From positions 1 through 5,659 of the IMG/VR virus record IMGVR_UViG_2534681772_000009: a stretch of 5,659 nt of DNA; one strand, 5' to 3'. Both the position numbers and the translations under genes were made by a program. Positions 2,663-3,906 of the stretch are shown in pieces (positions within the stretch are counted from its first letter, which is position 1; the number at the start of each line of letters is the position of its first letter). Under the pieces are notes generated by a model, which saw only the letters and a list, made by a program, of their open reading frames with translations, made no database searches and was not told where the DNA came from. Source of the stretch: a virus (lineage: Monodnaviria; Loebvirae; Hofneiviricota; Faserviricetes; Tubulavirales).

Positions 2663-3906
2663 TCAGTTCAGGTTGTCCCGGAACAGTTCACCGCTCCTCG
2701 CGGCGCTGCGGGGCGTCGCCCTGCTCCGGTCAACCTTTCTGACCTGAAGCATCACCATAATATCAGTCTTGTTGCTTTCACTGGTACGGGAACCGAAGAA
2801 GCTCCAGCCGGAACTGGCCTTACTGTCTTTCTGTTCAGCAAGGCCACCAAGTAAAATAATATCACCATCTGCAAGGCTGACTTCGGTTGTTACATCACGC
2901 TTGATAAGGGTTGGCGAGTTATTGACGCCGGTTTCAGTGGTCACAAAGTTGGAAAGCTGCTGCTGAATCTTGAGATCCATTGTCCGACTTTTGATTGATG
3001 GCGTCACGTTAAACAAAACACCGCTGGAACGATATTCAACGGATTGCGTTGTCGTATTGTTATTCACCGTAACACTGCCCAGTACTGGCACATCAGAGCC
3101 GACTGAAAAAGACGCTGAGGCATTATTTTTACCCGCAGTCGTGGCGCACTGACAACAGTAAAACGACTGTCGGTTTTCAGCAGATTGAAAATGGCATCAA
3201 TGGAGCCGGTTCGAATATTGATAAAATTATCCAGTCCGGCAGCACCAACTGAAATATTGAATTTATCAGACAGAATTTTAGCCGCTAAAAGAATGCCGGA
3301 GCCGTCAGACTGCGAGGTCTGAACCTCAAAAACATAACCAGAAACAACCACTTCATCACTCATCGTATCCAGCGAAGTGACCAGTGTTTTCAGGATGGCG
3401 ATATCCTCTTTCGTACCATAATAAACCAGAATATCACCGGTTCGATTGATGTTGTTGCTTGCCCCTGATGAACCTTTTAGCGAATCGTCAGAAATCACGG
3501 CTCCACTGTTATTGAAGGAGCCTGAAACGTAGCCGCCAAGAATATCAGACAGGTAGGCAACAGAACGGTACTGAGGCGTATAAGTCCATGTATAACGTGG
3601 CTTAACCGGCTCTTTCGGCGTATAGGGCGCGATAAAATCAACACCCTTTTTCGTCCATATTCGAATGTTCATATTGCCAAGATAACGGGTTACAAATTCC
3701 CGTTCATCAATATCAGGTGTTAACCTGAATGTAATCATTCGTTCATCATTAACAAGCTGTGGATCTAGCATATACGGGACTTTAAGCACCTCACTGTAAA
3801 TAAGAGAAATAGCCTCCGGTAGCTTGACTTTATTTAATTCAAGCTCTGACCCTGCGAAAGCACATGAAGAAAATAGTAGCGTTAATGCGAGTAAAATCTT
3901 TTTCAT
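2663..3906 (-). pseudogene. Filamentous-phage pIV-type secretin (gene IV), interrupted by a -1 frameshift (or base-call error) in a homopolymer run
   Basis: ORF 3064..3906 has a Sec-type signal peptide (MKKILLALTLLFSSCAFAGS) and an N-terminal secretin-like region ending ...RFTVVSAPRLRV. ORF 2663..3091, in the -1 frame, continues with the secretin C-domain (ASASFSVGSDVPVLGSVTVNNNTTTQSVEYRSSGVLFNVTP...DGDIILLGGL...). The frames meet at the A5 run at minus-strand 3130-3126; a sixth A restores ...SAPRLRVKNNASASFSVGSDVPVLG..., which matches the spacing of the equivalent GspD/pIV segment. The ATG at 3904-3906 overlaps the pI stop (TAATG). Confidence 0.85.

Follow-up and report, generated by a model that had tools for sequence, protein, structure and literature searches.

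A one-base contraction that splits the pIV-type secretin gene of a CUS-1/YpfPhi-type filamentous prophage in a draft Escherichia coli contig is most likely of technical origin

The locus described here raises the question of whether a phage secretin gene that is split in a draft assembly is also broken in the organism. The window (i.e., the whole stretch of DNA that was analyzed, 5,659 nt) is the entire 5,659-bp draft contig AIHG01000043.1 of GCA_000250335.2, and the element in it is, judging by sequence comparison, the dif-proximal half of a CUS-1/YpfPhi-type filamentous (inovirus) prophage at the chromosomal dif of E. coli. In fact, the prophage boundary is a dif site, the XerCD target (1764–1791, minus strand), with a perfect 28/28 match to that of E. 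coli (0 expected by chance), and homology to most other lysogens starts at 1763, i.e., at this site. In annotated relatives with 99.9% identity, the full inovirus order is replication, G5P, coat, pIII-like/puvA, DUF2523, Zot, secretin, and two small ORFs; the window holds the portion from puvA through to the end. On the minus strand it comprises the 3′ end of the pIII-like/puvA-type gene (5238–5659), cut by the contig end and annotated as “virulence factor PuvA domain protein” in one relative; the DUF2523 gene for a pVI/Ace-like minor coat protein (4935–5224), whose ATG at 5222–5224 is out of frame with the body; an intact gene for a 341-aa pI/Zot-family assembly ATPase (3906–4931); the pIV-type secretin gene (2663–3906); an 82-aa ORF of unknown function (2326–2574; WP_001399975.1 in relatives); and a small prophage-end ORF (1932–2180; annotated as 65 aa, WP_001298440.1; phrog_6642).

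The whole secretin gene measures 1244 nt in the window and 1245 nt in relatives, and its overlap with the stop codon of zot/pI consists of one base, at 3906. The frame-break site is a plus-strand run of five T at 3126–3130, in the context ...GGCATTA TTTTT ACCCGC..., that is, A5 on the coding strand against six in the relatives, at codons V259-K260-N261. Native secretin sequence ends at K260; the next 20 residues are out of frame and lead to a stop. Two minus-strand ORFs in different frames, overlapping around the run, are thus found in place of one: an N-terminal fragment of 280 aa (3064–3906; 260 native and 20 aberrant residues), with a signal-peptide-like N-terminus (called by inspection of MKKILLALTLLFSSCAFA/GSE), the periplasmic N domains, and about 18 residues from the start of the secretin domain; and a C-terminal fragment of 142 aa (2663–3091), whose GTG start is native V273 and which lacks a signal peptide but includes the greater part of the Pfam Secretin domain (59.1 bits). 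In a global alignment of window positions 2600–3950 with two complete E. coli genomes, the only indel is found at this run, which is T6 in both genomes. The exact coincidence of the split with a homopolymer, as claimed in the original prediction, is therefore a result of direct comparison and not a chance pattern. The claim that one added base restores a continuous secretin also holds, since the six-base allele gives a gene of 1245 nt and a product of 414 aa that is WP_000722135.1, a protein annotated in many E. coli genomes as “type II secretion system protein GspD” and otherwise 100% identical to both window fragments. The run occupies nt 777–782 of the gene and is its sole homopolymer of at least six bases. 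In 102 of the 103 complete-genome records, signal peptide, N domains, and C-terminal barrel are encoded by one unbroken secretin ORF; in the window contig, this ORF is broken after K260. As a separate observation, the 11-mer AAAAAATAATG of the intact gene is present twice on the minus strand, at the frameshift site (3121–3131) and at the overlap between the zot stop and the secretin start (3904–3914).

The identification of the restored protein as a secretin is solid at the level of sequence comparison. It matches Pfam Secretin PF00263 with 87.2 bits (cut-off 27.5) over residues 243–372, and PHROG 1012, “assembly (protein IV of M13),” with E = 2.7e-137 over residues 1–394 of 414. In phmmer searches, GspD structures were retrieved with E = 3e-16 and f1 pIV with E = 2e-10; the f1 pIV structure 7ofh aligns to residues 146–371 of the restored protein, and the alignment to Vibrio cholerae GspD (5wq8) spans the frameshift junction without any gap. 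The Pfam, PHROG, and phmmer matches bear out the assignment to the pIV-type secretins of filamentous prophages, and the ungapped 5wq8 alignment confirms that the junction keeps the spacing of the equivalent GspD/pIV segment. The likeness to pIV of the Ff phages (f1/M13; 7OFH) and to GspD of the type II secretion system thus includes the Secretin domain, PHROG 1012, the structure matches, and the position of the secretin gene directly downstream of the pI/Zot gene. However, the sequence similarity to both proteins is distant only, and the window secretin is shorter than GspD (414 aa vs. about 650). A protein search of a phage collection returned closest relatives that are at most 49% identical, among gut inoviruses.

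Among known phages, the best comparison is with CUS-1 of E. coli O18:K1:H7 and YpfPhi/CUS-2 of Yersinia pestis. Integration at dif, tandem repeats, episomal forms, and the secretion module YPO2279/YPO2280 have been described for these phages (PMC4266046, PMC10354491). The window element resembles them in gene order, in dif integration with an intact dif at the prophage end (PMC4266046), and in the tandem copies and episomal form found in its relatives; besides, there is the PuvA annotation of one relative, and a Y. pestis protein falls in the 90% cluster of the C-terminal fragment. A near-identity DNA search of the phage collection with the window gave no match, and a close nucleotide likeness to the CUS-1 or YpfPhi genomes is suggested only indirectly, by the PuvA annotation, the Y. 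pestis cluster member, and the published description (PMC4266046). The relatives often hold tandem copies of the prophage (median 2, up to 5 places per genome), and strain TUM14759 has in addition a copy in the form of a 9,565-bp circular “plasmid” (NZ_CP128883.1), which appears to be the phage replicative form. The differences are a broken secretin frame and a scrambled DUF2523 start, both in the window contig only, and a flank past dif that is an integrase element struck by IS2 instead of the usual hipA-side flank. Another dif-integrating, XerCD-dependent inovirus with a Zot/pI gene is CTXphi of Vibrio cholerae. In contrast to the phage family of the window, which encodes its own secretin, CTXphi has no secretin gene and uses the host EpsD. 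The window gene is complete apart from one base, unlike the secretin-less CTXphi type, and the family's own secretin is intact in essentially all of its copies.

The flank beyond dif deserves a description of its own. The window contig begins inside an IS2, whose right-hand part (orfB, rve domains; 1–776, plus strand) is 100% identical to other IS2 copies, and the junction at 776/777 truncates a site-specific integrase gene. The 5′ part of this gene (777–1229, minus strand; 291 aa in TW10590) is flank and lies outside the filamentous phage. The flank is formed by an element with overlapping integrase genes, and in the phage-free sister strains (L050, L051, and L053) this integrase element follows hipA-dif directly. 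In the sister strains AIHI and SRR096912/13 an IS2 end is located elsewhere in the integrase element, in a 516-aa integrase gene. The IS2/integrase fusion ORFs had no exact-product match in the protein collection. A sister draft, AIHF01000013.1, equals window 1–2790 at 100%, including the IS2 junction, and ends before the T run.

The length of the run in orthologous prophages, a comparison that had been proposed as a check, is very uniform. Six bases are present in 102 of the 103 complete E. coli genome records that carry the site. The exception is the chromosome of TUM14759 (NZ_CP128877.1), in a tandem prophage array that shows 35 gaps in 7.8 kb vs. a reference and in which most genes are annotated as frameshifted; this array looks like an unpolished long-read assembly, and the episomal copy of the same strain (9.6 kb), unlike the array, is clean and has T6. 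Exact searches with a 30-mer containing T5 gave 0 matches in GTDB species representatives, IMG/VR, and JGI metagenomes, whereas a 31-mer with the T6 run matched eight IMG/VR contigs. In a collection of 15 billion proteins, neither the 280-aa ORF of the frameshifted N-terminal fragment nor its annotated 235-aa product occurs on any other contig, and the 142-aa C-terminal product is found on 23 contigs with varied lesions. All other A5 alleles found are in assemblies with additional homopolymer deletions. For example, in contig L008 the A6 at the zot stop is likewise contracted to A5, contig L014 has besides a T5-to-T4 change 21 nt away, and contig L047 has three deletions inside 45 nt. Single, clean one-base lesions of the secretin gene do occur elsewhere, namely an A7 allele (L009) and the loss of one base at nt 617 or 661 (L006 and L013). 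Larger lesions are also seen. Three Logan contigs from different runs (L010, 1230/1231; L012, 2346/2347; L011, 2307) have the 5′ part of the secretin gene deleted, in L011 together with most of zot; all three deletions end on the right at one and the same point, near nt 630 of the gene, and the deletion junction of L010 and L012 is identical (GTCAAGC joined to ATTCTGTC). These deletions may represent a recurrent miniphage-like variant. Away from the phage, a G6-to-G5 change splits an autotransporter gene in the read assembly of one sister strain (L054 at ~2620, SRR096912), as compared with L053 and L055.

The T5 allele does not stand alone. Over 4.9 kb, the window differs from TW10590 at exactly six sites, the T run and five others at 4964–5236, in and just upstream of the DUF2523 gene. 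Two of these are substitutions, C at 4964 (T in the others) and G at 5114 (A in the others). The remaining three are insertions of one base each, all inside a stretch of 24 nt: 5213 (TT vs. T), 5218 (A4 vs. A3), and 5236 (T4 vs. T3). The five extra differences are absent from all 103 complete-genome records and from 17 fetched loci, and the remaining 776 + 2,348 + 1,833 + 423 window bases are identical to the relatives. Five of the six private differences are changes in homopolymer length or at run boundaries (T6 to T5, T to TT, A3 to A4, T3 to T4, and AAG to AGG). In the DUF2523 gene of the window contig, the loss of the ATG frame leaves a 94-aa TTG-initiated ORF (4935–5219) with two private amino-acid changes, F to L and I to V, and this variant is RefSeq WP_000511824.1, seen on the window contig only. 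The private changes in this region also create an EcoRI site (GAATTC). Since the private differences are clustered and concern mostly run length, while all other bases are identical, they point to a local low-quality consensus and not to divergence. In addition, an independent run, ERR14335458, which need not be of the same isolate, gave a Logan assembly whose contig 338 runs from a point 27 nt inside the same IS2 end to window position 5659. This contig shares the IS2/integrase junction and has T6; its differences from the window are the six private sites and no others.

Taken together, these results make it probable, at the level of sequence, that T5 is an error of base calling or assembly in AIHG01000043.1 only and that the organism has an intact gene. 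The locus is the virion-export module of the prophage, in which a pI/Zot ATPase gene is followed by the gene for a 414-aa pIV-type outer-membrane secretin. In the contig, the secretin frame is broken where the one six-base run of the gene has shrunk from A6 to A5 (coding strand); the organism would encode a normal secretin. We favor the miscall because the allele is private, the assembly with the same junction has T6, and the five nearby private differences are mostly of homopolymer length; a technical rather than a biological origin of T5 is thus the most likely one, inferred from these comparisons. The original prediction had left the choice between sequencing error and genuine lesion open, and the evidence just named tilts it towards error. 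The present case resembles homopolymer indel errors of draft and long-read assemblies: the longest run has changed by a single base in one assembly only, other runs differ in length as well, and the same site is off-length in assemblies with many other homopolymer indels.

On the other hand, sister drafts of the window contig look accurate, unlike what is expected of such errors. AIHH and AIHI, two drafts that come from this contig's project, show no difference from independent Logan assemblies across 12.2 and 7.8 kb, and the assemblies of this project are therefore not generally error-prone. This accuracy, which extends to the rest of the window contig, argues against the miscall and for the next explanation, which is possible though unlikely: a genuine, recent, strain-private null mutation in which replication slippage shortened the A6 run. 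Such a copy would make a periplasmic 280-aa fragment and no outer-membrane channel, and export would need an intact pIV in trans. Natural frameshifts arise most commonly by slipped-strand loss in a gene's longest run, here its only one of at least six bases; the independent one-base lesions and deletions of the secretin gene in other assemblies also favor a genuine mutation; and the presence of IS2 in the adjacent integrase gene indicates real decay in this neighborhood, at a locus already struck once. The possibility that ERR14335458 comes from another isolate further weakens the case for the miscall. The phenotype predicted for a null mutation is well founded, since knockout of the YpfPhi secretion module abolishes particle production (PMC4266046). 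However, the allele is found on one contig only, the assembly with the same IS2 junction lacks it, and a natural mutation is hard to credit when five further private changes, three of them insertions in 24 nt, are packed into 273 nt while the surrounding 5.4 kb are identical.

Were the lesion real, the N-terminal fragment would be secreted into the periplasm but lack the barrel, and the C-terminal fragment would lack a signal peptide; a channel would not form, and the window copy would therefore export no virions. The idea that the prophage might then depend on a host secretin, as CTXphi does, finds no support and is rejected, since the phage family carries its own secretin, usually in tandem copies. 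Because of these two features, complementation by a sister copy would be the likelier rescue.

Multiple copies also underlie another alternative, which we regard as improbable, that is, that T5 is a real minority variant. In this case, several copies of the phage (tandem and/or replicative form) would have been collapsed in the assembly, with the alleles of a defective copy retained at the six positions. The multiple places occupied per genome in the relatives, the tandem arrays, the episomal copy of TUM14759, and the tandem copies and episomes described for YpfPhi (PMC4266046) are consistent with it, as are the end of the window contig inside the phage and the break of the sister draft AIHF at window 2790. 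Against it, the contig passes the tandem-repeat boundary near 2244 unbroken, and the copy numbers in its favor are those of relatives.

The A6 run could also be seen as a genuine slippage hot spot, working as a recurrent and reversible off-switch of the secretin in natural E. coli populations. If true, virion export would be silenced together with the envelope stress caused by pIV, perhaps with a trickle of wild-type secretin through a –1 slip at GUA-AAA-AUA. A5 is carried by the window and by three other assemblies, and A7 by one contig that is otherwise clean. We consider this very improbable; two run lengths common in populations are not what was found, five bases being present in one of the 103 records, within an error-ridden array.

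Finally, the tract might be a functional switch for phase variation of the secretin or a site of low-level –1 ribosomal slip on GUA-AAA-AUA. Slippage on lysine codons is the basis of such a mechanism. If tRNA-Lys in the P site slipped by –1 on A-AAA ahead of the rare AUA, the product would contain the native residues K-N-N-A; both A5 and A7 alleles are present elsewhere. This reading is hardly credible, and a programmed slippery site or phase-variable tract is rejected, because the diverged homologues interrupt the run by synonymous changes while keeping the peptide SAPRLRVK(N/D)..., with GTT AAG AAT or GTG AAG GAT at this place in L045 and L046 (75% nucleotide identity) and L048 (62%); moreover, the run is merely 6 nt long, and off-length alleles are rare and mostly found in noisy assemblies.

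The prophage type is already known, and the lesion is ordinary under either reading. If T5 is a miscall, the export module of this prophage copy is to be treated as intact, and both the RefSeq pseudogene call and the 94-aa DUF2523 protein would be artefacts. If, alternatively, the lesion is real, this would be one more filamentous prophage copy losing its export capacity. The importance of the finding is small beyond annotation hygiene; phages of the CUS-1 type have been associated with fitness effects of modest size in E. coli K1 and Y. pestis (PMC4266046), and a real lesion would bear only on whether the strain sheds CUS-1-type virions.
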